A stretch of DNA of 64,000 nt from a virus (taxonomy: Duplodnaviria; Heunggongvirae; Uroviricota; Caudoviricetes): positions 74,988 to 138,987 of IMG/VR virus record IMGVR_UViG_3300028805_000065; one strand, 5' to 3'. Positions 2,916-49,394 of this stretch are shown here, piece by piece. The translations under genes were made by a program, and so were the position numbers. The first letter of the stretch is position 1, and each line of letters starts with the position of its first letter. The notes under the pieces are model-generated. The model was given only the letters and a program-made list of their open reading frames with translations, was not told the origin of the DNA and ran no database searches.

Positions 2916-3935
2916 TTAAGAAAGTCTATAAACGCCATTCTTAGAAGCAATAATTGCCTCAATAGCATATCTCTGAGCCATAAGCCATTCCTGAGACAGA
3001 TCAGCATTGTTCAGCGGATTGCCGGGGATAATGAGAGTTGTGCCCTCTTCAACACCTTTCAAGAATTTCTCGTCGCCAGCAATGACATAAAGGTCGTTGG
3101 GAAGCAGGGGGTTATCATTGTCATCAAGAACATTGTTCAGCACATAAATAGGGGTTGTATAGAACTGCCCATAGTAACCCATTGCAAACATCTGCTCTTT
3201 TGCAGTATCAGAGTCAGCGCCTCTAACACCAGTGATCTTACGAACAGCTTGCTTAGAACCAATAATAGAAGCTTTCATGTTTGTCTTAGCCTCAATAAAG
3301 TCGATAAGCTTAACCAGCTTATCCTCATCAAATGTTCCACTCTGGAAGTACTTAGTATCTACAATGTTATCAAAAACAGCCTTTGTAGCCTTGAACGCCT
3401 CAAGAGTTCTAGCCTCTGCAAAAGACTTGATAGCAACATCAATCATGTGACCAAAGTCAGCACGACCACTTGCAATCCTACGAAGTTCCTCATAAATCTT
3501 TACGCCATGCAGAACAGGCTTAATTGTAACCTTTCTCTCGCCAAACAGTCTCTGTCTGCGAAGTCCCTGTGTACCCTCTGCAATACGAGAAATGTAGAAC
3601 TTCTCATTGCCATCACGGATTTCAAACTCTCCAGTATCACCCTCGGCATAATTCTGCCAATCAATATAACCGAGAAGAGGAGAAGCCGCATCGAGTTCTC
3701 TCTTTGTACCCTCTGTAATAATCTGCTCAATCAGAGCATAATCAATCTTACCATCACGGGTTGCCCTATAAATATCGAATTTACCGTTCTCAATATAGTT
3801 CTCATAATCCTTGCCAAATACGGCTTTCTTGAGAATATCATTCATCTCGTCAAGGGAATAATTGCCCTGAGGAGTCTTATTATGAAGATCAACCGCCATT
3901 CTTACGAGATCTTTTCTTTCCATTATTTTCACCAT
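2916..3935 (-). CDS. putative major capsid protein (339 aa)
   Basis: Position after portal/scaffold/decoration-like genes in the canonical terminase-portal-scaffold-capsid order; strong RBS; size typical; no sequence search done. Confidence 0.4.
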   Translation of the reverse strand: MVKIMERKDLVRMAVDLHNKTPQGNYSLDEMNDILKKAVFGKDYENYIENGKFDIYRATRDGKIDYALIEQIITEGTKRELDAASPLLGYIDWQNYAEGDTGEFEIRDGNEKFYISRIAEGTQGLRRQRLFGERKVTIKPVLHGVKIYEELRRIASGRADFGHMIDVAIKSFAEARTLEAFKATKAVFDNIVDTKYFQSGTFDEDKLVKLIDFIEAKTNMKASIIGSKQAVRKITGVRGADSDTAKEQMFAMGYYGQFYTTPIYVLNNVLDDNDNPLLPNDLYVIAGDEKFLKGVEEGTTLIIPGNPLNNADLSQEWLMAQRYAIEAIIASKNGVYRLS

Positions 3936-3957
3936 TCCTTTCTATAGATTTTGCCAA

Positions 3958-4467
3958 TTAGACACGAACCACATAGAAAGTGATTCCATTTACGTCTTCA
4001 ATGTCAACAACTACACCAATCTGAGTAGAACCAGAAGTGGCAGTCTTGACAACTTTCATCTTTGTGCCAGCCTGTGCCTCAACAAGGTCACCAATAGCAG
4101 GAGTTGCATTAAACGCCTCTGCTGTAGCACTAAACACCTGACCGACCATCTTGCTCAGAAGATGCACACGGATAGGAGTACCAGCATCGTTCTCCCAATC
4201 AAAGATAGTCTTTCTCTCGTCATAATCAACTTCAGGAGTTGTAACGATTGCAAGGTTTGTAGAAGAAGCAGTGGGAGTTGTAGCTACCCAAAGTTCCCTA
4301 TCACCGTCAACAAGTTCGTCTTTAAGTTCAACAATATTCGCATTATCAATTGCACCCTCTGTCTTGGTAGAAACAGTATATGTCGTATAATACATAGCAC
4401 TCTTCACCGCAGACATGGCGTTGTTGCCCAGTGCAACATCAACTCTAACAATTGCATGATTAGCCAT
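3958..4467 (-). CDS. hypothetical head protein (169 aa; decoration or minor capsid candidate)
   Basis: Small gene between scaffold-like and capsid-like genes; predicted beta-rich composition. Confidence 0.35.
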   Translation of the reverse strand: MANHAIVRVDVALGNNAMSAVKSAMYYTTYTVSTKTEGAIDNANIVELKDELVDGDRELWVATTPTASSTNLAIVTTPEVDYDERKTIFDWENDAGTPIRVHLLSKMVGQVFSATAEAFNATPAIGDLVEAQAGTKMKVVKTATSGSTQIGVVVDIEDVNGITFYVVRV

Positions 4468-4481
4468 TTTTCATTCCTCCA

Positions 4482-5930
4482 TTACATGTAATATTCCCTA
4501 GCATTTCCATAGGGATCTTTTTCCTTTTCAACTTCATCAAAACCGCCAAGTCCAAACTTAATAGTATTGTTCTTATTTTCATCCTTTACAAAATTAGAAT
4601 GCATACCAACAATCGCATAAAGCCTAATCTTTAAATCTTCAATACTATACTTGGACGCATCGGTCTTGAGAGCCTCAAATTCCTCAGTCTCGCCAATCCT
4701 GTCAGCAAAAGATTCGAACAGTTCGTTCTCAGCAGATTCCCTGTCGGCATTTTCTCTGCTCTGCTTATACTCAACAAGGATCTGATATTCCTCATTAGAG
4801 TAAGTATGTGCAGATTTATATGCCTCAAACTCCGCAACAACACCCTCATATGCATTCTTCATATCATTATACATAGCTTCATAATCAGGTAATTCTTCTT
4901 CTACTGGCTCGGTAGGCTCTTCATTGTTTTCCTCTTCCGCACCGTCTTCGGTAGGCTCTTCTCCAACTTCAGCTGTAGCCTCTTCATTAGAGCCGTCTTC
5001 AAAATTCTCTTCGTTATTTACAGGCTCAACATTCTCAGGCTCAACATTCTCGTTTTCAGCAGAGTTCTCCTCAAAATCGGTAACGGCAGTGTCAACATTT
5101 TTGGTTTCGTCTGCCATAAATTCGCCCCCCTCAGTTTCGTTTACAGTTGCATTATCAGAGAAATTATCAACCTTATCGTAATTAATCTCAAAGTTGTTGA
5201 TAAAATCATTGATTCTATCTTTAAGAAGAGAAAACTCTTTCTTAAATTCATCTAACCCAAACGCATATGGCTCAACCCTTGAACTAATAAATGCTGGTTC
5301 TGAATGCTCAACATTCTTATCTGTATGTCCATTTGTTGAATCTTTATCTGCTTTCCCAAGTAAACAAAAAGCACTGAATGTATAACCCAGTACTTCCCAA
5401 TAATTACTATCTTCCTCAAGTGGACGATAATTCTCAATATTAATTTCCATAGAGTGATTAAATAAGGTTTCGTCACTATAGAAAGCCTGTTCAAGTTCTG
5501 GGTATCTGCCAATCCAAAGAATTGCATCAAATGTCAAATACTCAACTTCCTTGCCGTGTTCCTCAATAGTTTCCCAACCCTCAGAACCCTCTACGATTAC
5601 ACCATATGGTCTAGTTACATCTTTAATCTCCCAATCGTCAGTAATTTCAAAATCATGGCTTCCCATGTAAGAATGTTCAACGCCGTCAGCGTCAACATAT
5701 ACCCTAATATGCCCAACGACAGGACAGTAGTATGCGCTTGGTATAGCTTTTAATGTATCCTCTTTTGAAAGATATGTCATATTTCTGTTTTTGCCCGGAG
5801 ACATTGCATATATTTTCACAAGCATAAACTCATCATTAAGCTTCTTAAGCGCTTCAATTCTTTGTGTATCAAAAGACACACGCATTCGTTTTTCACTCAA
5901 CTTATTTATTCCCCCTTTCCTTAAAAACAC
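4482..5930 (-). CDS. putative scaffolding protein (482 aa) with extremely acidic E/N/D-rich central segment
   Basis: Low-complexity acidic region (EENNEEPTEPVEEE...) and coiled-coil-like C-terminus; located between portal and capsid candidates. Confidence 0.4.
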   Translation of the reverse strand: MFLRKGGINKLSEKRMRVSFDTQRIEALKKLNDEFMLVKIYAMSPGKNRNMTYLSKEDTLKAIPSAYYCPVVGHIRVYVDADGVEHSYMGSHDFEITDDWEIKDVTRPYGVIVEGSEGWETIEEHGKEVEYLTFDAILWIGRYPELEQAFYSDETLFNHSMEINIENYRPLEEDSNYWEVLGYTFSAFCLLGKADKDSTNGHTDKNVEHSEPAFISSRVEPYAFGLDEFKKEFSLLKDRINDFINNFEINYDKVDNFSDNATVNETEGGEFMADETKNVDTAVTDFEENSAENENVEPENVEPVNNEENFEDGSNEEATAEVGEEPTEDGAEEENNEEPTEPVEEELPDYEAMYNDMKNAYEGVVAEFEAYKSAHTYSNEEYQILVEYKQSRENADRESAENELFESFADRIGETEEFEALKTDASKYSIEDLKIRLYAIVGMHSNFVKDENKNNTIKFGLGGFDEVEKEKDPYGNAREYYM

Positions 5931-9515: not shown

Positions 9516-10639
9516 TCTTTTTCACCGCCATGTTCAAGAAAGAGAACTTCATTACTAAGCTGTCTGTTCTCTTCCCGTAATCTATCTAGTTCATTCGTCA
9601 TATCTTGAATCATTTCTCGCTGATTCTTTATGACCCTAGTATAGTCGTTCTCATCAAGCTGAAGTTGTTCCATAATGCTTTGGAAACTAAGGTCAGCCGT
9701 TTGCTTAATTGATTCACAAGTCTTAATGTCGAAAAGATTTACACGAGATGGGTCAAACCCATTCTCGTACATCTCTCTAATTTTATCAGACATTGTCCCT
9801 TGCCCGGCACGTATATTTCTATTCCACTGACTTGAAATATTATTATCTTTAGCTAGATTAGTGATTGTGTCTAACGCCTGTTTTTTAGAAGCCATTAAAT
9901 TTTTTAGTCTAGCATCATCAATCTCATAATCGTTTGATATTTTATTTATTTCCTCATCAAGCTTCTTTATCTGTAAGAATGTTTTTACCATGCTTACACA
10001 ACACATCATCTTATGACCATCCTCAGAAATTCCCTCTGTATCGCAATAACCGCTTAAAGCATTATAGCAATACTTCCTATCCATAACGGTTGCCTCTATC
10101 ATATCCTCAAGAGGGTCATATCCATATGTTTCTATTACATAACGCCTGTTCTTTTCATCTTTGTCATCCCATGTGACCTCTAAAGGTTTCACAACTGGCG
10201 GAGACATTTCACCGGGTAATGTGCCATGTTTCTCAGCAATGATATTGGTTCTAGATAACTCGCCGTCAAATATGCTATCAATAAAAGTTTTATTTTTCCA
10301 TTGAGTAGTATTGTTCACAATTCTTGAATACATACCCGGAGTATATTGCTGTGCGTTTTTTGCAAGTGAAGCAAATGCGTCACTACTAAAATACCAGTCC
10401 ATATAATGACATATGACTTTCATAGCATATTCTTCCGACTTATATCTATCAGCTATAACAGACTTAAACTTATCAATACACGTTTTACAAATAGGGGCGT
10501 AACCACTATTAGCCAGCCAAAGAGGAGACTTACTTGACGACTTATAAAAATTGCCAGTCAATGCAGTATATTCCATACCACATGACACGCACTTATATAT
10601 ATTTTTGTTACTCTTCCGTGAATTCATCTTTACTGGCAT
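9512..10639 (-). CDS. hypothetical protein with N-terminal CxxC zinc finger and C-terminal coiled coil (375 aa); small terminase candidate
   Basis: Immediately upstream of terL with 4-nt overlap; 'CVSCG...C..C' motif; heptad-like C-terminus. Confidence 0.35.
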   Translation of the reverse strand: MPVKMNSRKSNKNIYKCVSCGMEYTALTGNFYKSSSKSPLWLANSGYAPICKTCIDKFKSVIADRYKSEEYAMKVICHYMDWYFSSDAFASLAKNAQQYTPGMYSRIVNNTTQWKNKTFIDSIFDGELSRTNIIAEKHGTLPGEMSPPVVKPLEVTWDDKDEKNRRYVIETYGYDPLEDMIEATVMDRKYCYNALSGYCDTEGISEDGHKMMCCVSMVKTFLQIKKLDEEINKISNDYEIDDARLKNLMASKKQALDTITNLAKDNNISSQWNRNIRAGQGTMSDKIREMYENGFDPSRVNLFDIKTCESIKQTADLSFQSIMEQLQLDENDYTRVIKNQREMIQDMTNELDRLREENRQLSNEVLFLEHGGEKD

Positions 10640-10658
10640 TGGTTCACATCCTTGTTAT

Positions 10659-11183
10659 TCAATTATTAAATACGCATGTAATACTACAGCCTAAATCATC
10701 AAATGAAATAAATTTGCTATAACCAATAGCCTTTCCGCTTTCATCACGTATAATAATATCTTTACAGTCTTCAGACTTCATGTAGTGATTAATGGAGCAA
10801 TCGATGTCATCACTAATACCAACATCTATAAAAAAGGAATCCCTATATTTATAAATATGAGAAATGCATTCATCACTACAGTCTGGTAATACAAAAACAA
10901 CCCCATCATCTGGTGAAAGATATTTACCATTACGATAAAATTTTTCGCAAAACACCTTATCATCATTACTTACAGAAATAATAAACTCTTTATCATATCC
11001 GTCAAACGATGGGTCTGATATCTTAATTAAAAAAGGTGTGAGTTCAGTATACCCAAGCAGTTCCTTTAAAATAATAGTAGCATTGTCGTATTTGGTTATA
11101 AAAGACACACCAAATTCACAATCAATGTCAGTAGCTTCACTAACCAAACTTTCTAAATCATCATACTCTTTTTTTACTACCAT
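10659..11183 (-). CDS. hypothetical protein (174 aa), Cys-containing
   Basis: ORF with RBS; no motif. Confidence 0.4.
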   Translation of the reverse strand: MVVKKEYDDLESLVSEATDIDCEFGVSFITKYDNATIILKELLGYTELTPFLIKISDPSFDGYDKEFIISVSNDDKVFCEKFYRNGKYLSPDDGVVFVLPDCSDECISHIYKYRDSFFIDVGISDDIDCSINHYMKSEDCKDIIIRDESGKAIGYSKFISFDDLGCSITCVFNN

Positions 11184-11496
11184 GATCCAACTCCTTTACT
11201 TCTCCACTCTTAATATCTTTCATAAAATTTTCTTTATACTCAACACGTATTTTTGATTTTGGTGGTATTGTGGCAATAGTACCGTCTGGCATCCTGTGTT
11301 CATGTTCTGGAATATCAATTCTTTTAAAAGCCATATAATTTTTAATATTTACAGCACCATCCTCAATGAGCGCAATTTTAATCGCTTCAAATACATAATC
11401 GACCATCCACTCGCCAAGATAAATTGGTATACGTTTACCACCTCTAAGTGCAAATCTATCACTTATGATTCTTGCCAAATCATTTCTTCTTAACAT
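11161..11496 (-). CDS. HU/IHF-like DNA-binding protein (111 aa)
   Basis: Pattern 'G..N.KNYMAFKRI.IPEH.HR.PDGT...IPPKSKIRV..K..F' aligns with the HU beta-arm signature (GFG.F.....R.GRNP.TG..I.I....V.F..G..LK). Confidence 0.45.
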   Translation of the reverse strand: MLRRNDLARIISDRFALRGGKRIPIYLGEWMVDYVFEAIKIALIEDGAVNIKNYMAFKRIDIPEHEHRMPDGTIATIPPKSKIRVEYKENFMKDIKSGEVKELDHGSKKRV

Positions 11497-11517
11497 ACTA
11501 TTTCTCCTTTTACTCTT

Positions 11518-12753
11518 TTAACTCCTAAAATAAATCGGATAGTATGCTTTTAAACCATTGTCATCTACAACACACACAAGTTGACTTGCGTTACCACTTA
11601 ATCTTTTTTCAACAGTGAAATCATCACCACTTCCTGCAAGAGATCCACCTCTAATCATTTTCACTTTATTTACTTCATCGACTGCGATTGTGTGCAAATG
11701 ACCAGTAAACCAAGCCTCAGGAAATTCACGAATCATTGAAATTAATTTCTGTACATCTCCCTTATTGAACCCATCATAATCACCATGCGTGGCAACATAG
11801 GATTTTCCTCTAACATTAAAAAGAGCAATTGATGTATCAATATCATTCTCAATTACATGAAAGTTCTCAACGTTATAAAGGCTCAGACCAACAGCCCATG
11901 AAATTAAGTCATCAAGTCTGTCGTCGTGCATAGCATTATCTTTGTTTGGTGTCAAACGTGAATGATTGCCACTAACAGATATAAAATTTACATTATTAAA
12001 ATGCTGAGAAAGTTTATAACAAAAATTGCATATAATCTCGGTAGCAATTTTTACTTGGTCAACAACATTCTCTCTGTTAGTAACCTGAATGGTCTTGTGA
12101 ATAATACCACTGATCTGATCGCCTAAAGAAAGCACATAGCAATTCTCTGAATTATGCATCTTTTGTAATTCAATGACATTTGATAACAATTCAGACATTC
12201 TCTCAATCGCAATATCAGTATCAAATCTTCCGAACTTATTATTAAACGTAGCGCCGATATGAAGATCACTCAACAAAACAATAATATCGTTATCGGATGT
12301 AAATGTGTCTACATGATGATTTGGAAATTGTATATTTCCAATAGATACAAGAGAGTCAGAGAGTTTATCCAACATATCCTCGGCTCGTGCGTCGGCATAA
12401 TTCTGCTTACTCCAAGCACGTCTCTCATCTCTTAACTTTACCTTTTCGCGTTCTGCCTCTCTTTTAGATGCATTAAGTTTATTAAGATATTCATCTTCAC
12501 TAAACTTGTTGAAGACACCGCTTTCGTAAAACTTCTTTGCCTGTTCATATGGTTTACGATATGCGCTTGAGGTTCTGTATTCAGACTCGTCGCTCCTGAA
12601 ATAAAAGTTTATCAGATAAGCAATGTCATCCCATGTGCCATCATAATTACCATTATCTTTAGCCTGACCAATAGACCAAAGATAGGAGAGTTCACCTTGC
12701 CCCTCTATGGGCTTTGTGTCAAACACGGTTTTTTCTCCTTGCCAAATCCTCAC
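11518..12753 (-). CDS. calcineurin-like metallophosphoesterase (411 aa)
   Basis: Ordered motifs: 'LSDLHIG' (D-x-H), 'GDQISG' (GDxxD), 'GNHS' (GNH), 'THGDY', 'GHLH' (GHxH); N-terminal coiled-coil region. Confidence 0.6.
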   Translation of the reverse strand: MRIWQGEKTVFDTKPIEGQGELSYLWSIGQAKDNGNYDGTWDDIAYLINFYFRSDESEYRTSSAYRKPYEQAKKFYESGVFNKFSEDEYLNKLNASKREAEREKVKLRDERRAWSKQNYADARAEDMLDKLSDSLVSIGNIQFPNHHVDTFTSDNDIIVLLSDLHIGATFNNKFGRFDTDIAIERMSELLSNVIELQKMHNSENCYVLSLGDQISGIIHKTIQVTNRENVVDQVKIATEIICNFCYKLSQHFNNVNFISVSGNHSRLTPNKDNAMHDDRLDDLISWAVGLSLYNVENFHVIENDIDTSIALFNVRGKSYVATHGDYDGFNKGDVQKLISMIREFPEAWFTGHLHTIAVDEVNKVKMIRGGSLAGSGDDFTVEKRLSGNASQLVCVVDDNGLKAYYPIYFRS

Positions 12754-12929
12754 CGTTCATTGCACGTTGAAGAATTTGTAAACTACGTTTGTCTTCCATG
12801 ATGTAATACTTGTTTTTTGTCCCAGTGACAATGTGTTTGTACGGCGAATTTAAAATCGCCTTTGCATACTGTTTCTGAATTTGTCTCAATATTTTCTCCT
12901 TTAATACTTATATTTCCTTTATAGGATAA

Positions 12930-13003
12930 CGGCTCGTGATGAGTTCGAATCATCGACCCCTTGTTTAACAGACAAGTGCTACTACCAACTGAGCTAACGA
13001 GCC
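12930..13003 (-). tRNA. tRNA-Asn (anticodon GTT)
   Basis: Reverse complement folds as a cloverleaf: acceptor GGCTCGT/ACGAGCC, anticodon arm CTTGT-CTGTTAA-ACAAG, T arm GATGA-TTCGAAC-TCATC. Confidence 0.75.
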
Positions 13004-13123
13004 ATAACGACCTATCGGGGTAATGCTCCCCGTTCTCCGCCGTGACAGGGCGGTGTAATACCTTTTATACTAATAAGCCACAATAAAAGAGAGGAATAAT
13101 TAACCCCTCTCTTGATATATAAA

Positions 13124-13534
13124 TTATTTCTTTAACTCGTCTAAAGCCCTCTGAATAATTGCTTTGTCACGAGAAGAAGTGGATTCGTCCATCATCATCT
13201 GAAGTTCGTTCATCATCTTATCTGAAGAACTCATACGACTATAGCCATTGTCATAGGCGTAATTGCCTCTACCACTCATATTCATATTATTGTTTCCATA
13301 GGAGTACCTATCGTTATATGGCATACGTCCGCCATAACCTACTCCCCAATAACCATATGAGCCATCCTTATCGTACTGATGATTTTCTTCCTTGCCTTGA
13401 ATCTCCTCAATATCCTTGAGCATATCCACGATTTTATTGGCAGTCTCAAGCGTAGAGGTAGTGAAATCATTCTGTTGTGTAATTTTCTTTAATTCCGTGC
13501 AGAGCATATCTTTAAGATAATCAAGTTCTTTCAT
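13124..13534 (-). CDS. hypothetical G/Y/N-rich protein (136 aa)
   Basis: ORF with low-complexity GYGGRMPYNDRYSYGNNN segment. Confidence 0.4.
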   Translation of the reverse strand: MKELDYLKDMLCTELKKITQQNDFTTSTLETANKIVDMLKDIEEIQGKEENHQYDKDGSYGYWGVGYGGRMPYNDRYSYGNNNMNMSGRGNYAYDNGYSRMSSSDKMMNELQMMMDESTSSRDKAIIQRALDELKK

Positions 13535-13546
13535 TTCCTCACCCCC

Positions 13547-13993
13547 TTATGCCGTTCTATCAACCGTCAGATTTGCATTCTGAACATTGATTGGTACACC
13601 GCTTGTATTTTCAATCGAAACAGTTAAACAACACCCAGCAGGGACTGTAATGTTTGCCACTGAAGTCACATTGAAATAAGCGTCTACGACAGTAGGAGTG
13701 ACACGAGCACGGCTCGTCTGAACAGGCTCACCATCAATAGCAATAGCAAGGCTTATTTCTCCAGCCGTACCATCAGTTGGAACTGCAATATTGCCATTAA
13801 ATGCGAGATGATATCTTGCGAATCTAGCACAAGGGTTATTAACAATGCCTCTAAGAGTAAGAATGCCGCTACCATTACGGTGTATCACGTAACCACGATT
13901 ACACGGTATGGAGTCCTGCAATAATACATTCTGTCCGATTTCTACTTCCTGTATCGGGTTGTATACATACTCAGCCATTATTGCCACCCCCAA
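13547..13993 (-). CDS. hypothetical beta-rich protein (148 aa), possible receptor-binding/C1q-like fold
   Basis: ORF with strong RBS; composition resembles TNF/C1q-like phage fibre tips (weak inference). Confidence 0.35.
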   Translation of the reverse strand: MGVAIMAEYVYNPIQEVEIGQNVLLQDSIPCNRGYVIHRNGSGILTLRGIVNNPCARFARYHLAFNGNIAVPTDGTAGEISLAIAIDGEPVQTSRARVTPTVVDAYFNVTSVANITVPAGCCLTVSIENTSGVPINVQNANLTVDRTA

Positions 13994-17596: not shown

Positions 17597-17619
17597 CTCT
17601 ATATATTACTTCCGATTTT
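17597..17619 (-). promoter_or_regulatory. conserved 23-bp motif CTCTATATATTACTTCCGATTTT (copy 1), candidate phage-specific late promoter
   Basis: Nearly identical (22/23) copy at 21395-21417; both lie 35-75 nt upstream of the first start codon of a leftward operon. Confidence 0.4.
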
Positions 17620-17756
17620 CAACAAAAAATTTATAAAAAGTGCTAAAACACCCCGGATTTCGGAAGCTGTCTCCATATAATGGACGAATTTTAATGGCAG
17701 TTTTGCCCATAAATAAAGGATTTTTCAAAATAGGTTGCGGTAAAAAATAGTAAAAA

Positions 17757-20420
17757 TCAACAAAAATTGGATAAAAACTTTGTGCTATCTGTCTTATAAA
17801 GTAAATTAAGTATCTTTATTCCATACTTCCTTGCAGACTTAATTGCGGCATTTTTATAATTGCCACTAATATTTAAACCTAACGAATACTCTATAAGTTT
17901 GTTTATTGTTGCTGGGTTCTTTGTTCTTATCTTCCCAATTTCGTCTGAATAATATTTTGCCTTTAGAGATAATTGCTCTTTAAAATTATCATCTACAGAA
18001 TATACTGGTTTTGTTACGGTTTGAATCCAATCATCATATTCCTTTGCAAGTGTTATTATCTTTGATACATGCCTATATTCTGGTTTACCATTTATCTTTA
18101 TAAAAAACTTCTCAGTAGGTATCGTATTTGTACTTGATATATTCTGAATTTTATCAAGCCTTTCCTCAACCCAATTCATCGGACAGATGAGAGACGGATC
18201 TACTCTGTCTCTTAACTTTTTCTTGCTTCTATTAATTTCAGAAAATGGCAACTCTTTACCGTTCTTTGTGTACGGGATTGGACGTGTATACTTCATAAAA
18301 AGTGGGAAGTCATATTTCTTTTCCTTTAAAGCCCCGTCCTCAAATGTCATAATAGTCCTATGCATACAATCTTGTTGACCAATGCGCTTAATTTCATCCA
18401 TTCCAGAAATTTCGTACTCTCTCTTGCACCCATCGATTATCAGCTGTGCTACAACAGATAGCACAATAAAATCATCTTCTAATTGAAGCGACAGTCTTTC
18501 ATCACGCTCATCGTCTTCCTTTTGCATTTCTGTAAAGAAATAAGATATGGCAAGCATTGCAAGATTTGAACTCCATCCTATTCCAAGCCTTGCCTTACTC
18601 ATTTTATTATCCATCTCTGCGTATGCTTCTGGTGTATTGTCGTAAGATATACCGCTTTCGTTAAGAGCATTGACAATAGTTGGAAATCTCTTATAACATC
18701 TTTTTGCACATTCAACCATTACAGGATGGTTTGTTGCAAGAATAAAATCAGAATCAAAATCAGCACCATTCAATCTAGATTGAACGTCAGTACCAATGCA
18801 ATTTATCGCAACAATATTTTTAGAAAAATCAAAATACTTTTCCATTAAAGGGTGATGTACATTATGAAGATATGCCACGTTATTCATAGAGTTGTTTGGA
18901 GATCTGAAACCGCAAATATATTCACCGTCATCAAATCTTTTGGTATAACATTGAATTGTATCACGCTCTTGTATAAGCGTTTTATCCTTAGTCCAATCAT
19001 CACCAACTGCATGGAGTAGAAGAGCATATGGATTGCCACACAATGTAAGGTTATCGCCATTAACAAAAATTTTACCTTGTCTTAACTTGCCAACGTATGA
19101 GTTTATAATTTTTCTCTTTTCAAGTCTAAACCAAGTTGACTCACCAAACTCATGGTTATGATTGTACAAGTCTGCCATCATTTCATAATGATTCACATCG
19201 TTAGCATTTTTTCTTAAGAACTTTTCAAACTCATCGTTGTCTCTTTTTAAAAGTTCAACATACTCAACGCTGTCTTTGCATATCTCATTTATTTCTTCCT
19301 GAGTGGCTGGTAGCACATTAAGCATTTGATAACTCAGTTGCTGTTGATTACCTAATTTAGATGGATGGTCTGTTTTAACAACGCCCCACAAGCATCCATC
19401 TTTTCTAACTATTTTTGCCCAATAAGAATAAGGATTTCTTCCCATTAAATCAGAAAACTTTCGCCACTTAATAGCATTCTCTGTTGTTATGGCTTTGATA
19501 TTTTTTAATAACTTCTTTTTGCCAAAATAGTCTGTTACCTCATACGTATCGTAGTCATAACCATTTTTATCACACCAGTCTTTGAAAAACTTTTTGATAT
19601 GTGTTCTAAAGAAACACGCTTTAAAGAAATGATTTCTTAATAGCACCATGCCGTTAACATAAGATGGGAGAATAGAAGATTCGATAAGACCTTGACCGTC
19701 AAACAGTGTATTCTTTACATCCGTTTTTTCTCTATCAACAACGCACATCTTTTTCGTTTCGCCGTTGTCGTCTGTGTATTCCTCTGCGCGAACAATGTTT
19801 GCCATTGTTGTATAAAAACTATCCACGTCAGATACAAATAATATGTCGTCAACATCTATGTGTATTCTATCAATTATTGTTGACGTTGTGAGTGGGGCAT
19901 AAGCAGACATCTCAACGATTTTTGCGTTATGCAACGGCATCTTTTTTCCAAGCCCCATCGTTAACCATTTATACGCCCTATCATATAACTTCTCATCTAT
20001 AAACATTACAGAACCAATTTTAGCTTTTGCAGGAGTTCTAAACAACATCTTATAATGAATTTTCTGTGAAGACTTTATTGAACCATCTTTATTTTTGGTT
20101 TCCCATAAAATATCAACGCCCTCTTTATAATATTTAGTTCTGATATCGTCTCTGGACATTGGCGCATATTTTTCTTTATTGGCTTCTACTAATGCGAGTT
20201 TAGTTTTAAGACGCTCCACTAAATCAACGTTGTCGTCTTCAACTGCTTTATCAATCAGCATTGTGAGTCTCTTATGTTCATCTTCATAAGAACGGCTTCC
20301 AAAATCAAACGATAGACAAATAATCGATCTAGTGGACTCGCCTTTGTAAACATCTAAGCCGTGGTCTTTCATGTAATAAAGAAACAGGCTGTTGTTCAAC
20401 ATTGCATCTGTATAAGTCAA
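17757..20420 (-). CDS. putative YonO-like single-subunit RNA polymerase (887 aa) with a DxDxD 'NGADFDSD' catalytic-type motif
   Basis: Motif GIGTDVQSRLNGADFDSDFILATNHP (DFDSD encoded at 18747-18761) resembles the universal beta-prime NADFDGD Mg-binding loop retained in YonO-type, crAss-type and killer-plasmid single-chain RNAPs; size matches YonO (about 840 aa); no P-loop or polymerase A/B-family motifs. Confidence 0.45.
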   Translation of the reverse strand: MTYTDAMLNNSLFLYYMKDHGLDVYKGESTRSIICLSFDFGSRSYEDEHKRLTMLIDKAVEDDNVDLVERLKTKLALVEANKEKYAPMSRDDIRTKYYKEGVDILWETKNKDGSIKSSQKIHYKMLFRTPAKAKIGSVMFIDEKLYDRAYKWLTMGLGKKMPLHNAKIVEMSAYAPLTTSTIIDRIHIDVDDILFVSDVDSFYTTMANIVRAEEYTDDNGETKKMCVVDREKTDVKNTLFDGQGLIESSILPSYVNGMVLLRNHFFKACFFRTHIKKFFKDWCDKNGYDYDTYEVTDYFGKKKLLKNIKAITTENAIKWRKFSDLMGRNPYSYWAKIVRKDGCLWGVVKTDHPSKLGNQQQLSYQMLNVLPATQEEINEICKDSVEYVELLKRDNDEFEKFLRKNANDVNHYEMMADLYNHNHEFGESTWFRLEKRKIINSYVGKLRQGKIFVNGDNLTLCGNPYALLLHAVGDDWTKDKTLIQERDTIQCYTKRFDDGEYICGFRSPNNSMNNVAYLHNVHHPLMEKYFDFSKNIVAINCIGTDVQSRLNGADFDSDFILATNHPVMVECAKRCYKRFPTIVNALNESGISYDNTPEAYAEMDNKMSKARLGIGWSSNLAMLAISYFFTEMQKEDDERDERLSLQLEDDFIVLSVVAQLIIDGCKREYEISGMDEIKRIGQQDCMHRTIMTFEDGALKEKKYDFPLFMKYTRPIPYTKNGKELPFSEINRSKKKLRDRVDPSLICPMNWVEERLDKIQNISSTNTIPTEKFFIKINGKPEYRHVSKIITLAKEYDDWIQTVTKPVYSVDDNFKEQLSLKAKYYSDEIGKIRTKNPATINKLIEYSLGLNISGNYKNAAIKSARKYGIKILNLLYKTDSTKFLSNFC

Positions 20421-20494
20421 ATACTCACGTAACCCAAGATTATAGTCGTACAGTATTCCAGCACTGATATTCCTTATCTTGAGTCCATATTCAC

Positions 20495-20701
20495 TTATTC
20501 AGCAACACTCTCCTCAGTATCTTCGGTGTCCTCAGTGTTTTTAAAATCGTACACCTTTTCTGAATCTACCTTAAAACGAATAGCACCGATAATTTCAGCA
20601 CACTCACGGGGAACAATTTCACTATCACAAGAATCGTAGTACTCAATCATCTCCCTAATAACTTTTACCTCTTCGTCAGAAAAATAAATCATATAACTCA
20701 C
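20495..20701 (-). CDS. small acidic hypothetical protein (68 aa)
   Basis: ORF with ATGA overlap to the upstream gene. Confidence 0.4.
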   Translation of the reverse strand: MSYMIYFSDEEVKVIREMIEYYDSCDSEIVPRECAEIIGAIRFKVDSEKVYDFKNTEDTEDTEESVAE

Positions 20702-21060
20702 TCCTTTTCTTTGTTTGCATACTGTCTTGTAAGTTCATCATATAAATCGGATATAGTCCCGAGTGGTATATCATGACCGTCATCATCTGTTACAACACCA
20801 TGTACCCAATCCTCACCACAATCTAACTCATACACCCAATAATCAATAAGCGGATACTCAGAATCATCTTTAAATATTCTGTTAAGCAGCAGAAGAGTCG
20901 TATCAATAGTCGGTGTGTTTCTAAAATATTCACCATCAACTCCAACACCTCTAACCGCATCATAGATTTTGTCCTGAAATCTAATTTCATTTACAATGCC
21001 AGTCATAACCTTGTTAAATTCATCATAGGATAAAATATTCATCATTCTTTTACACCTCAC
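20698..21060 (-). CDS. hypothetical protein (120 aa)
   Basis: ORF translationally coupled to its neighbours. Confidence 0.4.
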   Translation of the reverse strand: MRCKRMMNILSYDEFNKVMTGIVNEIRFQDKIYDAVRGVGVDGEYFRNTPTIDTTLLLLNRIFKDDSEYPLIDYWVYELDCGEDWVHGVVTDDDGHDIPLGTISDLYDELTRQYANKEKE

Positions 21061-21361
21061 TCAGTAATATAAAAATCAAACAAACCATCTCTCATATCTA
21101 GTCTTCTGAGTTCGCATCCCCAAAAAATTGTTTTATCAACCGTTTCCAGAAATGTGATCTCATTGCCAAAGAGTTTCTTCATCCAGTTATAGGTGTTCGC
21201 CGATACGCCAATTATCGGGAAGTCACCGTGTTTGTCATGCGTGTCATCTCTGATGTCAAGGATCTTGTCAACAAAGTTGTCCTTAAAATCATCGGTGTTA
21301 ACCATCGAACCGGGCAGATTAATATTCTGTGCAAAAGAATTAACAAGTACCATAAGTTTCA
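21057..21361 (-). CDS. hypothetical protein (101 aa)
   Basis: Start moved to the ATG preceded by AGAGGAG (MKLMVLV...); the upstream in-frame extension lacks an RBS. Confidence 0.4.
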
Positions 21362-21394
21362 TTTTTCTCCTCTCTGTGTTTGGGTTAATCAATA

Positions 21395-21417
21395 CTCTCT
21401 ATATATTACTTCTGATT
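21395..21417 (-). promoter_or_regulatory. conserved 23-bp motif CTCTATATATTACTTCTGATTTT (copy 2), candidate late promoter
   Basis: Matches 17597-17619 at 22/23 positions; sits at the head of a leftward operon. Confidence 0.4.
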
Positions 21418-21446
21418 TTTGTTTTGAATTTTTATACGAAATGTGT

Positions 21447-26646: not shown

Positions 26647-26862
26647 TCACCCCTCATCTTTCTCTTCTAAAAATTCTTCTAACTTTTGTTTCATCTCTCT
26701 CAACTTCTTATTCGACTGGTACAATCTGTTGTCCCGACACCAGTCACACGACCCATGACAACGGCAGGATTTATCAATCCTCTTACTGCCCGTATAAGGA
26801 TGTTTGACAGTCTTGTTATGAAGTTTCCAGTTATACTTTTTTGATTTCATTGTTTCACCCAT
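26647..26862 (-). CDS. small Cys/His-rich protein (71 aa), 'SCRCHGSCDWC'
   Basis: ORF with a probable zinc-binding cluster and basic residues. Confidence 0.4.
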   Translation of the reverse strand: MGETMKSKKYNWKLHNKTVKHPYTGSKRIDKSCRCHGSCDWCRDNRLYQSNKKLREMKQKLEEFLEEKDEG

Positions 26863-26915
26863 AATTTACTTCTCAAAAGAAAAGTAAAATTTACAAAATT
26901 CCTTTAAAAGAAAAA

Positions 26916-28166: not shown

Positions 28167-28439
28167 AAAATTCCCCCTTTCGTAGTCTTGTTAAAAGTTA
28201 CTTCCGAAAAGGTTATAAAAAAAATCGTAAAAATCAGATATCCACTGCCGTAGGCAGTACCCATAGCACCTTGCTTTTAATCATTCATTTCAAAAAAAGT
28301 ACCACTTCGGTTCAAAAAAGTACTTTTTTTACAAAAAAAGCCTTTATTTATGGGCTTAATCGGGTGTGGGTCTAGTAAATATAAATAGAGAAAGAAAAAT
28401 CATAATGTTTAAGACATAAAAAAAGACTCACAACGTGAA

Positions 28440-28990
28440 GTTGTTCGTCTTCGCTAAAAGTTATTAAAGCCAGTAAGAGAAAAATCTTAATCGTAGATAG
28501 ATCGACAAAGGCAGAGGGTATAGATGACGTGTAGGCTGAGACATGAAAACGTAAATGTATCGACAACCTTGCCAGTAAAAGAAAAAGTGTAGGTTGCGAC
28601 TTGAGACCTGAATGTTACTCATACACTGTAGGATATCGATAACTTCCATGTTGAGAGGTTAAATTTTGGCTAACGCCATTTAAATTAAGGAGAGTCCATA
28701 ACAAATTGTGACCTAGAGTTCTCAGCCAATAAAATAAAAAACGACGTAAGTCGTAATTTTAAAAAAGTAAGAACACCCAGCCACTAATATAAGATGACGT
28801 GAGTCATCATTTTAATTTAGTAAGAGAGGCTGGTGGCAAACTGACAACAGGCAGGGTATCGATAACATTTATGTCAGAGAGAATCTGTAGGACTGTGTAT
28901 CTTTTTCTTTACAGGCTAACAGCATGACTGCCTTTACTTTATCGACACACTGAAGTTCAGTCGATACATGTTGGCTGTGATAATTAAATT
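28440..28990. repeat. iteron-like repeat field, TATCGA(C/T)AAC x5 or more, plus TGTAGG x4
   Basis: Copies at 28500, 28558, 28633, 28857, 28939 and inverted at 28960; one mismatch from the DnaA-box TTATCCACA; palindromes GATGACGTGAGTCATC and ACGACGTAAGTCGT nearby. Confidence 0.5.
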
Positions 28991-29639
28991 AAGGCTTACG
29001 CCTTTTTTCTTTAAAGGCTGAGAGTGGGAGAGTGGTTTTATTATAGACGTAGTGGGTGGGGCAGTAGTAGTGGACTACAACCACGGATATATTTTGTTAA
29101 AATCTTAACGATTTATTGTAAAAACTTAAAGTTTTGTTTAATTTTTCCTGTAAAAGTTTGTAGTTTAGTCTACGTTTTGCCAGTAAAAGTAAAAGTTTTT
29201 GTATTGTTTACAGGGTATTTGTTGGTAAAATCCGCAGTAAATTGCTGGTATTTTGGGGTAAAACTTGCAAAAACTGCGCAAAAAGCAGGGTATTTTAATG
29301 GTTTGTTTCAAGCTGTTTTATTGCGGTATTCACTGGGGATTTTGTTGAAGATCTGGAAGTATCGGGTTTTGGAGCGTTTTATAGGGAGAGTAGAGATGGG
29401 TGGGAGAGTAGTGGAGTGATGAAAATATGAGGGGTCGGAGAAGTGGTGTCGTTGGCGCCGGGGGCGGATCAGCGGACGCTTCATCGTTGTAAAGCGCCCC
29501 AGTGCTAAAGTCCTATTACCTACGGGTTTACCGGGTTTTACGCTTCCATCAAAAGCGTAAAATCGAACAGACGTTTGTTCCTGAGCCGGACGCCCCCTTC
29601 TGTGCTACTTCGTATAGCACAGCTATCACAAGTCGGTGG

Positions 29640-30682: not shown

Positions 30683-30750
30683 GTAGGCAATTTAATACAG
30701 TAAAGCGCTAAAACCTGGTCGAGCAGTAGGCAATTTAATACACTAAAGTA
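30683..30750. repeat. direct repeat CAGTAGGCAATTTAATACA(G/C)TAAAG x2
   Basis: Two copies 39 bp apart, immediately upstream of the 17-bp tandem array. Confidence 0.45.
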
Positions 30751-30845
30751 TTGAAGTGGTAGTAGTCGGGGGCTTCCGCCAGTCGGGGGCTTCCGCCAGT
30801 CGGGGGCTTCCGCCAGTCGGGGGCTTCCGCCAGTCGGGGGCTTCC
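30744..30845. repeat. 17-bp tandem repeat AGTCGGGGGCTTCCGCC, 5 perfect plus 1 degenerate copy
   Basis: Perfect head-to-tail copies from 30744 to 30828 and a degenerate sixth (AGTCGTGGGCTTCCGAC); the track ORF 30756-31091 merely translates the repeat. Confidence 0.8.
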
Positions 30846-31136
30846 GCCAGTCGTGGGCTTCCGACTCTATTTTTTTGCCTTTATAGGTACAAACACATTC
30901 AAAAACGCATTTCCAGACAATCGAAAAATGTGATATTTAAAGGCTTTTTTGACGTTTTAAAAGTGCGCTTTTTGTCGTGTTCCTTCTATATAATCCGAAA
31001 ATGGTATTGTGCAAAATATACAAATAAGATTGTGCAATATTACTACTTGAAATACCCTTTAATCGGAGGTATGATACGTACTGTCAGATGACGAAAGCCA
31101 CTGACACGGTAGCAGATAACTTTTTTGAAAAAGGTG

Positions 31137-33326: not shown

Positions 33327-33438
33327 CTTGTCGATTGATGAGCGCTCACTACGGAATTGAGATGGTAGGGGGCGCTGATGAGCCGACAGGCTGACGGAAA
33401 CAAGAAACCCAACAACAAGAGGAAGAGGAAGCGGAATT

Positions 33439-33822
33439 ATGAAAGTTAAACTGGAAGACGGATACAGAGGAAAGTATACACTGGATGACCTCGACATGGC
33501 AAAAGCCGTGATCACTGCGGAAAAAGAGGACGAGCTATCCGCCAAGGAATGGGCAGAATACGCAGTCAAAGAGGCTCTGAGGAACGAGGATGGATACCCT
33601 GTAGAAGTCCTAAAAGCGGAAGCAAGGACAGCAAGGAACTGCCGTATCAATTGGAATCGATATGGAGAGGGGACAGGAATGATGGATGTATGGATTTCCT
33701 TTGTTGCGGAAACAACAGAGGGGTTCATCAAAGGCGGAGCGTATCTGTCCGACATATGGGATACAGGAAGCACGGAATATAAACAGCATATGTACATCAG
33801 ATGGGCGGACTGGACTGACTGA
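33439..33822 (+). CDS. hypothetical protein (127 aa)
   Basis: ORF with the leader motif AACCCAACAACAAGAGGAAG upstream. Confidence 0.45.
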   Translation: MKVKLEDGYRGKYTLDDLDMAKAVITAEKEDELSAKEWAEYAVKEALRNEDGYPVEVLKAEARTARNCRINWNRYGEGTGMMDVWISFVAETTEGFIKGGAYLSDIWDTGSTEYKQHMYIRWADWTD

Positions 33823-33902
33823 AGAGAATCGGATCAGCCCTCTAGGGAATCAGCTTAGAGGGCTGAACGGAATAACGACAGAACCTGGTCTAAAATTCGT
33901 TC

Positions 33903-33931
33903 TTGACATACCACTGGAACGGTGGTAAGAT
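33903..33931 (+). promoter_or_regulatory. sigma-70-type promoter (TTGACA, 17 nt, TAAGAT) with CCACTGGAACGGTGG in the spacer
   Basis: Near-duplicate of the 33058 promoter. Confidence 0.45.
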
Positions 33932-33974
33932 GAAGAGGAAGTAAAGGGAAGCACCACTAAAAGGGGGCAGAATT

Positions 33975-34145
33975 ATGATGACAATCTACACATTCGAAAC
34001 GGTTGCAGATAATTGGAGTGACTACGGAAGCACACACTTCAACGTCATCGCTTCATCGGAACGAGAGGCTTGGAAAAAAGCCTGTGAAATTGAACACAGG
34101 GAGAACATCATCGGAATCATCCGATACAGGGTGATTGGGTTCTAA
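33975..34145 (+). CDS. small protein (56 aa)
   Basis: ATG after a GGGGGCAG RBS; below the track threshold. Confidence 0.3.
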   Translation: MMTIYTFETVADNWSDYGSTHFNVIASSEREAWKKACEIEHRENIIGIIRYRVIGF

Positions 34146-34161
34146 TGGAAAGGAGAATGGA

Positions 34162-34476
34162 ATGTACATCGTATATCACGGATGGATTGATGGAGAGCCT
34201 GTAGGGGAATTCAGAACGGTGAAAAGTGCGGTCAAATATATAGAGTCACAGGAATACCCCGAGGAATACTGCTTTGAGAAGAAAACCCACCGCAACAACG
34301 TTTTGCGTGGAATGGAAACTGGAAAAATGTGCATTTGTGAATACTGCTATAACGAATTAAGAAGCAGAGGGGAACGAGTCAAAATCATCGACAGATATGC
34401 AGTGGACATCTCAGAGGAACGGAGATGTGATCTCTGCGAGGAAGTAGATGACCTGATGGAAGTGGAAACGAGGTGA
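34162..34476 (+). CDS. zinc-ribbon protein (104 aa)
   Basis: 'CICEYCYNE...CDLCEE' double CxxC; start set at the ATG after AAGGAG. Confidence 0.4.
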   Translation: MYIVYHGWIDGEPVGEFRTVKSAVKYIESQEYPEEYCFEKKTHRNNVLRGMETGKMCICEYCYNELRSRGERVKIIDRYAVDISEERRCDLCEEVDDLMEVETR

Positions 34477-34571
34477 TGCATCAGCTTCAGCATTTCGATA
34501 GGAATCGGAGTGCTGAGACAGGGATATCACCCGGAACGGAAACCCAATAACAAGAGGAAGAGAGGAACAAG

Positions 34572-34814
34572 ATGGAAGTAAAGGTAAAAGATTTTATGCG
34601 CTTATGCGGAATAAAAGAAGAAAAGGTCATGTTCTATGAATGTGACACGATGGAAACAATCATCGTCCCTGTGGCTGATCTGTTCGACATCGTCAGACTT
34701 CCGCACACGGACATCTACAACGTCAGAGCGGAATACGCCGACATCATGGAAGCGGAAATTGCTTCTTGGGAATATGATGAGAGCGGAATCCTTTGCATCT
34801 TATATTTCACATGA
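34572..34814 (+). CDS. hypothetical protein (80 aa)
   Basis: ORF with the leader motif AACCCAATAACAAGAGGAAG upstream. Confidence 0.4.
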   Translation: MEVKVKDFMRLCGIKEEKVMFYECDTMETIIVPVADLFDIVRLPHTDIYNVRAEYADIMEAEIASWEYDESGILCILYFT

Positions 34815-34829
34815 CAGGGGGAACGAGGA

Positions 34830-35135
34830 ATGAGAAGAGAGTTTGCTACGGCAGATGGAAGTTACGAGGGAAGACTGGTTGTTTATAGGTTGGAATTCTT
34901 CTATATCGCTACAAAGGAAAAGGTAATAGCCGATGAGTGGGAAGTCGAAGACTGGAGATATCCCGAACTGACGGCGGTCGATTGCATGGTGTCCGATGGA
35001 TATGACTTTGAACAGTCGGATCTGGACAGCGGAATTATTGTGACGCTGTTCATTGAGGAAAAGCCTGTAAGCTGTGTCGTATGGCACGGATACGGAATGG
35101 AAAACATTGATGAGATTTTTGAGGTGGAAAGATGA
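34830..35135 (+). CDS. hypothetical protein (101 aa)
   Basis: ORF with RBS. Confidence 0.4.
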   Translation: MRREFATADGSYEGRLVVYRLEFFYIATKEKVIADEWEVEDWRYPELTAVDCMVSDGYDFEQSDLDSGIIVTLFIEEKPVSCVVWHGYGMENIDEIFEVER

Positions 35136-35449: not shown

Positions 35450-35472
35450 GTAATATCTGATTGGAGAGTGCA

Positions 35473-35844: not shown

Positions 35845-35866
35845 TGGAAAGATATGAGGTGACAAA

Positions 35867-45349: not shown

Positions 45350-45413
45350 TAACACCTGGCTGAAAAATCTGACCAGTAAAACAAGAAGTGATACATAGAA
45401 AGGGGTTTTATTT

Positions 45414-48792: not shown

Positions 48793-49394
48793 AACTTAGT
48801 AGAACCTATATCGGAATGGTTGAAAGGTATATCAACAGTCGTAGGCAAGGATGCTTATTGGAATGTGACGGAATTGCGATTGCCAATAACAGTATAAGCC
48901 TTATCTTATTTACACCAGTTCTTAATGACGATGGCAGTGGAATTTCTCCTATTGATTTTACTGGAATTAAAGTTACAGAATATCCCCACTTCAAGAACAG
49001 GATCTGGAAATACATCATTGAGCCTTACTGGGAAGACAGAACAAAATCTTATAAGCCAATGCCAATTACTTTGTTTTTGGAGGATATCAAGGCTGACGCA
49101 AAAAATGTCCACGATGAACTTGATATCCCGGTAAGAACAAAACTGTATGATGAGGCAGTAACGAATGGAAGATTTAAAACAGATGTTGCGTTAAAGTATG
49201 GCGGAGATGACGGAATATGGCTTAACCCGGAACTCCTGTATGATGTGGCAAAATTGATTACCTCTAAAGGAAAAGCGGTTGACATTTGGATTCCCAATAA
49301 CAAGAAACTGCCAGCCGTGGTTGTAGGGGAAAACAAATATGGAAGACACCTTGGTTTTGTATTGGGAACGATGAAAAATTATAAGGAAAACTGA
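48789..49394 (+). CDS. hypothetical protein (201 aa)
   Basis: ATGA-coupled ORF. Confidence 0.45.
   Translation: MKLSRTYIGMVERYINSRRQGCLLECDGIAIANNSISLILFTPVLNDDGSGISPIDFTGIKVTEYPHFKNRIWKYIIEPYWEDRTKSYKPMPITLFLEDIKADAKNVHDELDIPVRTKLYDEAVTNGRFKTDVALKYGGDDGIWLNPELLYDVAKLITSKGKAVDIWIPNNKKLPAVVVGENKYGRHLGFVLGTMKNYKEN

Follow-up and report, generated by a model that had tools for sequence, protein, structure and literature searches.

The locus examined here raises the question of what a short repeated motif, standing ahead of genes on both arms of a phage genome, does and which enzyme reads it. The window, i.e., the whole stretch of 64,000 nt that was analysed, covers positions 74,988 to 138,987 of the IMG/VR virus record IMGVR_UViG_3300028805_000065 (Caudoviricetes). 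It encodes a YonO-like RNA polymerase (RNAP) and a sigma factor fused to a second domain, and either could serve a phage-specific promoter. The repeated 23-bp motif, named M, is real. From its placement, its conservation and its internal spacing, its likeliest role is that of a dedicated, phage-specific class of promoter that is distinct from the early promoters, and it is probably read by the host RNAP carrying the phage sigma factor.

The 23-mer CTCTATATATTACTTCCGATTTT was found at 17597-17619, and a second copy with one mismatch was found at 21397-21419. The sequence-only reading had noticed this near-identical pair upstream of two minus-strand transcription units, and the observation was confirmed, with the start codons at 17558 and 21362 lying 38 nt and 34 nt beyond the 3' end of the respective 23-mer. 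It placed the first copy correctly, but the second, given as 21395-21417, truly lies 2 nt to the right. When up to three mismatches to the 23-mer were allowed, three matches were obtained against 0.00 expected from 100 dinucleotide shuffles. The third match, at 52176-52198 in plus-strand sense, had been overlooked. A position weight matrix (PWM) of M was built from 24 instances of the window and its relatives, and its census of the window (128 kb with both strands) gave six strong copies of 25.9-36.0 bits and a runner-up site of 11.4 bits. Because the matrix contains the six scored sites, weight is put on the gap between these scores and not on the absolute bits. The copies are as follows.

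17597..17635, minus strand: M1 with its -35-like block; TATAAA at 17630-17635, GAAGTA at 17607-17612 and R-G at 17599-17600.
21397..21435, minus strand: M2 with its -35-like block, ahead of the 101-aa gene (ATG 21362).
52160..52198, plus strand: M3 (23-mer 52176-52198), 21 nt past the stop codon of the sigma-fusion gene and before the RNA ligase gene (52341).
54624..54662, plus strand: M4 (23-mer 54640-54662), overlapping the stop codon of a 300-aa gene and preceding a 128-aa gene and the tRNA cluster.
49372..49410, plus strand: M5 (23-mer 49388-49410), with a -35-like TGAAAA exactly 17 nt ahead of GAAGTG.
45362..45400, plus strand: M6 (23-mer 45378-45400), a weaker copy, GAAGTGATACAT-AG, before a 76-aa gene (ATG 45414).
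26858..26880, minus strand: a possible weak seventh copy, GAGAAGTAAATTATGGGTG, under the PWM threshold and left out of the count.

All six copies are intergenic, in a window with a crude coding fraction of 0.83, and point the same way as the genes beside them. Counted from the 3' end of the motif, the start codon of the plus-strand copies follows after 142 nt (M3), 32 nt (M4), approximately 9 nt (M5) and 13 nt (M6). The stop codon of the upstream gene lies at most 27 nt before four of the six copies, so no terminator stands between. M1 precedes the 211-aa gene that heads the structural (late) operon. Behind M2, the gene order is the 101-aa gene, a 120-aa gene and the YonO-like polymerase gene, and this operon comes after non-structural genes of the minus arm, i.e., those of an HNH endonuclease, an Fe-S enzyme and a P-loop protein. 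The GGAGG of M5 serves also as the Shine-Dalgarno (SD) sequence of a small open reading frame (ORF; ATG at about 49420), and the 3' purines of M6 continue directly into the SD of the 76-aa gene. Plain duplication, which the sequence-only reading had named as a finding that would speak against a regulatory element, was not seen. The similarity around the copies stops short of longer duplicated segments, and the longest inverted pair is 35 nt at 86% identity. A partial copy had also been proposed before the P-loop ATPase gene. The site, at 28195-28212, shares only TCGGAAGTAA with M and has no TATAT-RG; by inspection, it also lacks the A-tract and the upstream AA described below, and approximately 0.12 10-mers of the TCGGAAGTAA type are expected by chance by our estimate. 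It was not counted as a copy. The relative L002 is not syntenic around this site.

In relatives, M is conserved as islands inside diverged flanks at syntenic sites. M1 is kept in L001, L003, L152-156 and L215, and M2 is kept approximately 980 nt upstream of the polymerase start in L001, L003, L152-156 and L226. An equivalent of M3 was found at the same junction, just after the sigma gene, in L240, L241 and L242; orthologous copies of M5 were found in L241 and L243, and those of M6, before the same MAFKEQ gene, in L240, L241 and L243. Four loci anchored on sigma homologs of 91, 87, 72 and 58% identity each hold several copies, on the coding strand only and nearly all directly upstream of called genes. 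Near the polymerase gene, M is absent in clades of less than 86% polymerase identity. The view that M is confined to the close polymerase clade was withdrawn, as M occurs around sigma homologs down to 58% identity. The idea that a GAAT variant in L002 marks a changed reader was also withdrawn, as GAAG and GAAT forms coexist in L242. Exact-pattern scans of IMG/VR with GAAGTAATATATRGAG and AAAANNNGAAGTRATAYATRG returned 86 and 68 stretches, nearly all of them single chance matches, and two matches per contig were found only in contigs already known as close relatives.

The alignment of the window instances with the four sigma-anchored loci gave the sharper consensus aAAAAnnA-GAAGTAATATAT-R-G-R-R. 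The whole layout is nGrAAAwT, approximately 9 variable nt, and then AAAAnnA-GAAGTA-ATATAT-RG. M thus holds two conserved blocks and not one, i.e., an AA at -19/-18, counted from the G of GAAG, and GAAGTAATATAT-RG. Both A residues are invariant in 12 of 12 independent site classes, each class being one representative with different upstream flanks. The other upstream columns are A at -17 (9 of 12), T at -15 (10 of 12) and G-rich positions at -22/-21. In a register-shuffle control, the same two-column information as that of the AA was attained in 1 of 2000 trials. A hexamer at -23..-18 leaves a 17-bp spacer to GAAGTA, and one at -22..-17 leaves 16 bp; M5 reads literally TGAAAA-N17-GAAGTG. With a start at the R after ATATAT, the two hexamers would fall at -35..-30 and -12..-7, 17 bp apart. 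The predicted spacing of M is therefore canonical sigma70-family geometry, and its hexamers are non-canonical. The earlier statement that the motif has no -35/-10 spacing does not stand, as the -35-like nGrAAAwT lies 17 bp upstream of GAAGTA.

Many copies have an SD that touches or overlaps their 3' purines, and the distance from the motif end to the start codon is then 7-22 nt, e.g., at the MAFKEQ gene of four genomes, so the predicted 5' end lies at or before R-G. A start at R-G would be 6-7 nt past GAAGTA, which is the usual distance from a -10 element. GAAGTA has A at hexamer position 2, but A and not T at position 6, and differs from a housekeeping -10 (A at -11, T at -7) in that last base. 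M is thus not a sigmaA promoter, and an alternative sigma would be needed. A scan of the window with the sigma70-type consensus showed no enrichment (57 sites found, 63 expected), and M was not detected by it. The opposite placement, with GAAGTA as the -35 and a -10 located 16-17 nt downstream, was rejected, as no conservation was seen there by eye and the starts would fall past the start codons. No hairpin was seen in M by inspection.

The sigma factor that is proposed to read M is encoded by the following gene.

50445..52154, plus strand: 569-aa protein, a sigma70/ECF-type domain (approximately residues 1-185) fused to GmrSD_N (DUF262).

The sigma domain matched TIGR02937 (sigma70-ECF) with 45.0 bits over a cutoff of 42.9. 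Of the 165 model positions, 27-164 are covered by the match, which thus takes in both region 2 and region 4, and the rest of the protein matches GmrSD_N. In the homolog of L176, Pfam Sigma70_r2 was found with 25.8 bits (cutoff 24) together with a weak r4_2 match. Homologs of the fusion span 98% to 54% identity, and the same fusion, 34-41% identical and passing Pfam Sigma70_r2, occurs in the clade whose polymerases are 51-53% identical. A peptide-pattern search of IMG/VR for the fusion returned none. In L176, the fusion gene (2786-4993, minus strand) and the polymerase gene lie on opposite strands approximately 1 kb apart, i.e., divergently adjacent.

The gene of the sigma fusion has a canonical sigmaA-type early promoter upstream, at 50080-50139 (plus strand), which reads TTGACA-17-TGGTATTCT. 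It belongs to a set of 12 near-identical sigmaA-type early promoters on the plus strand between 31128 and 50139 (others are, e.g., 36785-36844 and 38218-38277). Each is composed of an A-tract, TTGACA, a 17-nt spacer with the palindrome CCACCTAATAGGTGG, and the extended -10 TGGTATCAT. The spacer palindrome is a possible operator. Several of these promoters are followed by GAGAAGTAAGG. The heptamer GAAGTAA occurs 24 times against 10.5 expected, and its recurrence in the early leaders, as noted before, was seen again at several sites just past the -10 (36259-36276 and 36830-36847, with a GAAGTCAAGG variant at 44155). By inspection, these sites have no -35-like block at the right distance. With the element described next, the window appears to hold three promoter-like classes, i.e., the early sigmaA-type promoters, M, and P_A.

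The YonO-like polymerase has a candidate element of its own, which is located between its gene and M1.

17757..20420, minus strand: YonO-family single-subunit RNA polymerase gene, 887 aa as listed, with the catalytic motif NGADFDSD.
17667..17688, minus strand: P_A, TTCGTCCATTATATGGAGACAG, the sole strong site of its type in the window (23.1 bits).
17651..17665, minus strand: small hairpin and T-run separating P_A from M1; the changes seen there in relatives look compensatory.

The only match of the polymerase ORF was a PHROG family of unknown function, and its tblastn relatives were gut phages, Enterocloster phages and a Spbetavirus. In profile-profile comparison by hhalign, it matched the YonO clade with a probability of 97.5% (E 5.8e-12, 326 columns), so the YonO-family assignment is sound. 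The catalytic motif (DxDxD) is NGADFDSD in the window and AGSDFDYD in the YonO clade. For its promoter, 80 metagenomic loci (L152-L231) with polymerase homologs of 46-92% identity were dereplicated to 48, and the 220 nt after the polymerase stop codon were taken. An expectation-maximization motif search with one site per sequence converged on ATCGTCCGTTATATGAAGGAGA. The resulting family element, CGTCCG-TTATAT-GRRGRG, scores above 12 bits in approximately 44 of the 48 loci, where its distance from the stop codon is 45-100 nt. P_A, the instance of the window, lies 68 nt past the stop codon and approximately 50 nt upstream of M1. Numbered from the G that follows TATAT, it runs as one uninterrupted block from about -14 to +7, and no second, -35-like block at a fixed distance was found.

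M is not a variant of this element, as the six M copies score only -5.4 to +2.3 bits on the P_A matrix, and this interpretation was rejected. The hexamer before TATAT is GAAGTA in M and CGTCCG in P_A, different at all six bases. The spacer from the polymerase stop codon to M1, from whose alignment P_A was found, is better conserved among relatives than M. The position between polymerase gene and late operon is true of M1, but not of the other five copies of M.

The P_A type of element reaches the one YonO start that has been mapped. Forrest et al. (2017, PMC5467207) reported a YonO-dependent transcription start site (TSS) at 2,225,998 of Bacillus subtilis 168, upstream of an unannotated noncoding RNA and yonK, and noted that neither its promoter sequence nor any cofactors were known. 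In the searchable literature, no later paper was found that defines the YonO promoter or settles the need for a cofactor. The primer-extension primers of that study bracket positions 2600-2792 of L238 (AF020713). The yomD-bhlB cluster is given in a review as 2,262,437-2,265,169 of NC_000964, and the same cluster spans an identical 2733 nt in AF020713 (24012-21280), so the genome coordinate equals 2,286,449 minus the record coordinate. The TSS is then placed at record position 60451 (L238 2698), within the primer window, in GTCGGAT[A]ATAGTCATTTATGAGGG; this assumes zero net indel over 36 kb between AF020713 and NC_000964.3 and is good to a few nt. The independent SPbeta records looked at for the same spacing are phi3T hybrids. 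At the TSS, the sequence reads GTCGGAT[A]ATAG, and GTCGGATAAT-AG can be lined up with the family consensus CGTCCG-TATAAT-GG. A B. glycinifermentans prophage whose YonO is 77% identical keeps GTCGGATAATAGTCATTT but not the upstream flank. Sites of the P_A type in relatives include L238 2690-2716 and L234 7320-7350.

The SPbeta promoter, P_YonO, and P_A stand in the same order of features, i.e., polymerase, (HU-like gene), element, noncoding RNA, late operon, whereas the likeness of P_YonO to M goes no further than ATAG. Beside yonO, the SPbeta-type phages examined carry no sigma-like gene. From this conservation and the one mapped start, P_A is rather likely to be the promoter of YonO-type polymerases. 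It may be the first sequence-level candidate for these enzymes, from gut phages to SPbeta, and it coincides with the only mapped YonO start.

Several RNA-like features were observed around P_A. In most clades (L158, L190, L224, L187 and others), a conserved structured-looking RNA with a purine-rich 5' end lies approximately 0-180 nt downstream of P_A. It carries an invariant hairpin, CCGCTATTGCCGAGTGCGG, an AAATAYGGRA segment and a CTTTGGRCGT...AAACGYC hairpin, and a downstream pyrimidine stretch matches the purine-rich 5' end. This RNA is absent from Rfam 15, and RNAalifold recovered only the invariant hairpin, without covariation. The clade of the window has no such longer RNA after P_A; the small hairpin and T-run at 17651-17665 occupy its place. 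A 21-nt box, AAAAA(T/G)CCTTTATTTATGGGC, occurs at 17705-17725 (minus strand) and 28335-28355 (plus strand) with 95% identity. A TATA(T/A)...GAGA element follows each box after 24-25 nt, once before P_A and once facing the plus arm, and related A-rich, hairpin-like boxes stand ahead of P_A in other clades. TATAAT-G-purine, after which the first transcribed bases form a hairpin, was found directly after the HU gene of a Spbetavirus (L232 7245-7275, TATAATGAGGGAttagcATCCCTC) and after the polymerase gene of a gut-phage clade (L225, approximately 10005-10040, TATAATGAAGGATaattacATCCTTC). In SPbeta, the DUF3800-VIII small RNA (RF03075) lies in the yonN-yonK noncoding gap transcribed by YonO (L238 3675-3740; L232 8632-8697). 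A repeat search for a clade-specific promoter in L176 and L220 gave nothing convincing, and scans with TATAGAG and loose regular expressions for a second promoter class in other clades were too unspecific.

From these sequence features we infer promoter function, start sites and the enzyme assignments, and we favour, with moderate confidence, a sigma70-geometry promoter read by the host polymerase and the phage sigma in a three-tier cascade. In the first tier, host sigmaA would read the 12 early promoters, one of which would drive the sigma-fusion gene. The N-terminal domain of the fusion would then redirect the host multisubunit polymerase to the six M promoters, each composed of the -35-like nGrAAAwT, a 16-17 bp spacer ending in an A-tract, GAAGTA at the -10 position, the invariant AT-rich discriminator ATATAT and a purine start. 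M2 would boost the operon of the 101-aa gene, the 120-aa gene and the YonO-like polymerase, M1 would drive the structural operon, and M3-M6 would drive the RNA ligase gene, tRNAs and small genes. In the third tier, the YonO-like polymerase would use P_A, with a start expected at 17672-17674, for the late operon of at least 17.5 kb. An early sigmaA promoter before the sigma gene and M2 before the polymerase operon give the order that a cascade needs. Of the earlier proposal of a dedicated late promoter, the dedicated phage-specific class is kept and the purely late role is not, as four copies lie in the plus arm and one before the polymerase operon; middle/late promoters are the best reading. 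The reader had been left between the YonO-like RNAP and the phage sigma. The evidence favours the sigma, and the polymerase has a better candidate in P_A.

Several points weigh against this account. The start position of M is bounded solely by the SD positions. GAAGTA matches no known -10 consensus, with a final A against the usual T, and so strongly conserved a discriminator as ATATAT is unusual among sigma promoters. The TATAT-purine junction is common to M and P_A, and the same enzyme could act at both. The A-rich blocks are approximately 11-12 nt apart and could be phased A-tracts, i.e., DNA bending, instead of a -35 contact. The proposed sigma is one part of a fusion with GmrSD_N, and by sequence no relatives of solved structure were found for it. 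The relatives examined with M may all have a YonO-like polymerase as well, and co-occurrence cannot separate the candidate readers.

The strongest alternative is that the YonO-like polymerase, alone or with an accessory factor, reads M as a second class beside P_A, and that M2 gives positive feedback after read-through. M and P_A share the layout of a specificity hexamer, an AT-rich TATAT and a purine, M1 has the same place before the late operon as P_YonO in SPbeta, and the 27-nt gap before M2 holds no terminator, so read-through could prime such a loop. The divergent adjacency of fusion and polymerase genes in another clade also allows the two proteins to work together. Against this stand the near-zero bits of M on the polymerase-family PWM and the difference at six of six hexamer bases. 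Elements of the P_A type are kept from SPbeta to gut phages at approximately 24% polymerase identity (in the tblastn-aligned region), so one enzyme reading a wholly different hexamer is unlikely. In addition, a -35-like block at 17-bp spacing has no rationale for a single-block reader, and YonO of SPbeta uses one promoter for one operon (PMC5467207). We therefore regard the polymerase as an unlikely reader of M.

A host alternative sigma, e.g., of the sigmaH type, or sigmaA with a phage activator bound at GAAGTAA, is a still less probable reader. The bipartite geometry suits any sigma70-family holoenzyme, and GGAAAT...GAA(G/T)(T/A)A presumably resembles the Bacillus sigmaH pattern AGGAwww/GAATww with a spacing 1-2 bp longer. 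The activator variant agrees with the GAAGTAA found where several early transcripts begin, a place at which an operator bound by a switch protein could lie. However, the phage has a sigma of its own, which contains regions 2 and 4 and is encoded downstream of an early promoter, and the occurrence of M follows the loci that carry this sigma.

It is very improbable that the fusion is instead the promoter-specificity subunit of the YonO-like polymerase, with M read by polymerase and fusion and P_A by the polymerase alone. The divergently adjacent genes in one clade are compatible with it, and so is the common TATAT-purine junction, in which only the upstream recognition part differs. If true, a minimal two-barrel polymerase would for the first time be known to have a sigma-like factor, and the question of accessory factors of YonO-type enzymes, left open by Forrest et al., would have its answer.

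Equally hard to believe is that M is no promoter but an RNA-level or intercistronic module (processing, translation-initiation context or stop-restart) or a bending or partition-type protein site: four copies do start within 27 nt of an upstream stop codon, the 3' purines are often the SD and stop codons occur in two frames, but M1-M4 lie 32-142 nt from start codons with canonical SDs of their own, and the conservation takes in a block 30 nt upstream, beyond a variable spacer, as is typical of a DNA-recognition site and not of a ribosome-binding site (RBS). The Rfam search of the window found tRNAs only, with nothing at M.

The preferred reading, a promoter for host polymerase with the phage sigma, can be compared with known systems. 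T7-type promoters are approximately 23 bp long, occur in near-identical copies, and have an AT-rich TATA before a purine start, a purine-rich initial transcript and one contiguous block. M resembles them in its length, near-identical copies, TATA-purine junction and purine-rich start, and it is this likeness that initially points to a phage-polymerase promoter. It is unlike them in its second block 17 bp upstream, and the polymerase of the window is a two-barrel YonO-type enzyme that is unrelated to the T7 polymerase.

Promoters of phage sigma factors are known from phiEco32-like phages. They differ from the sigma70-type early promoters, are read by the host core with an early/middle phage sigma, and start 6-9 bp downstream of the element (PMC8948821). 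The sigma of phage 7-11 (gp47), which has region 4, uses the bipartite GTAAtg-(16)-aCTA, and gp36 of phiEco32, without region 4, uses the single block tAATGTAtA (PMC8948821). Phage 7-11 pairs a region-4 sigma with a two-block promoter, there with a 16-bp spacer, as is proposed for M. Unlike in these phages, the consensus of M (nGrAAAwT-N17-GAAGTA-ATATAT-R) is unrelated, and the sigma is fused to GmrSD_N/DUF262. The phage of the window also has a YonO-like polymerase, and its programme would have three tiers. The promoters of phage sigmas are thus known, and the consensus of M and the fusion of sigma with GmrSD_N are new.

In the crAss-like phage phi14:2, the virion polymerase gp66 acts early, its transcripts have no detectable common upstream motif, and host sigma70-type promoters serve the middle and late genes (bioRxiv 10.1101/2020.03.07.982082). 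The window phage likewise has a YonO/QDE-1-type polymerase and would use the host polymerase for another temporal class, whose promoters are conserved and have several parts. It is unlike phi14:2 in that its polymerase gene seems to be expressed in the middle phase and is accompanied by a clear, conserved candidate element.

M would define a regulon and a three-tier programme in a widespread large-phage family of gut and rumen metagenomes. With P_A and M, two short templates make the questions of promoter sequence and cofactor testable. The two elements also offer orthogonal promoter-polymerase and promoter-sigma pairs for engineering of Gram-positive and gut bacteria.

Other features were found in the window. 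Between the two arms, approximately 600 nt at 28400-29020 are noncoding and hold repeated TATCGAYAAC-type boxes and terminator-like hairpins on both strands; this region could encode small RNAs or contain an origin. Six tandem copies of a 17-nt GC-rich unit, AGTCGGGGGCTTCCGCC, lie at 30747-30880 in the otherwise AT-rich genome. A leader/RBS module, AAACCCAATAAnGAGAGGAGA, occurs at no fewer than 10 sites in 33405-46247 before many genes of the plus arm, and also at 21362-21386 (minus strand) before the 101-aa gene behind M2. The 331-aa ORF at 46252-47247 (plus strand) has the length and position of the Phage_integrase Pfam genes in L240, L241 (331 aa) and L242 (329 aa), and by this analogy it may be a tyrosine recombinase. 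At 57247-62600 (plus strand), repeated gene-start modules, TGATTATTGTAGTTTTGCGGAGAGGAGAGA..., and repeated internal segments suggest a family of paralogous small genes. In the tRNA cluster, ARAGORN predicted a tRNA-like gene with the four-base anticodon ggcg at 55920-55992 (plus strand), and Rfam added tRNAs beyond the ARAGORN list at 13008-13079 (minus strand) and 56227-56332 (plus strand).

Inserted elements were observed in relatives. The polymerase gene holds a group I intron in L224 (6016-6300) and is interrupted in L005/L225 (match 10001-13922), and the RNA ligase of L241 (11780-14131) contains an intein with a LAGLIDADG domain. In L187, an HDV-like ribozyme of the Faecalibacterium prausnitzii type was found at 983-1053 (minus strand), which hints at the host range.

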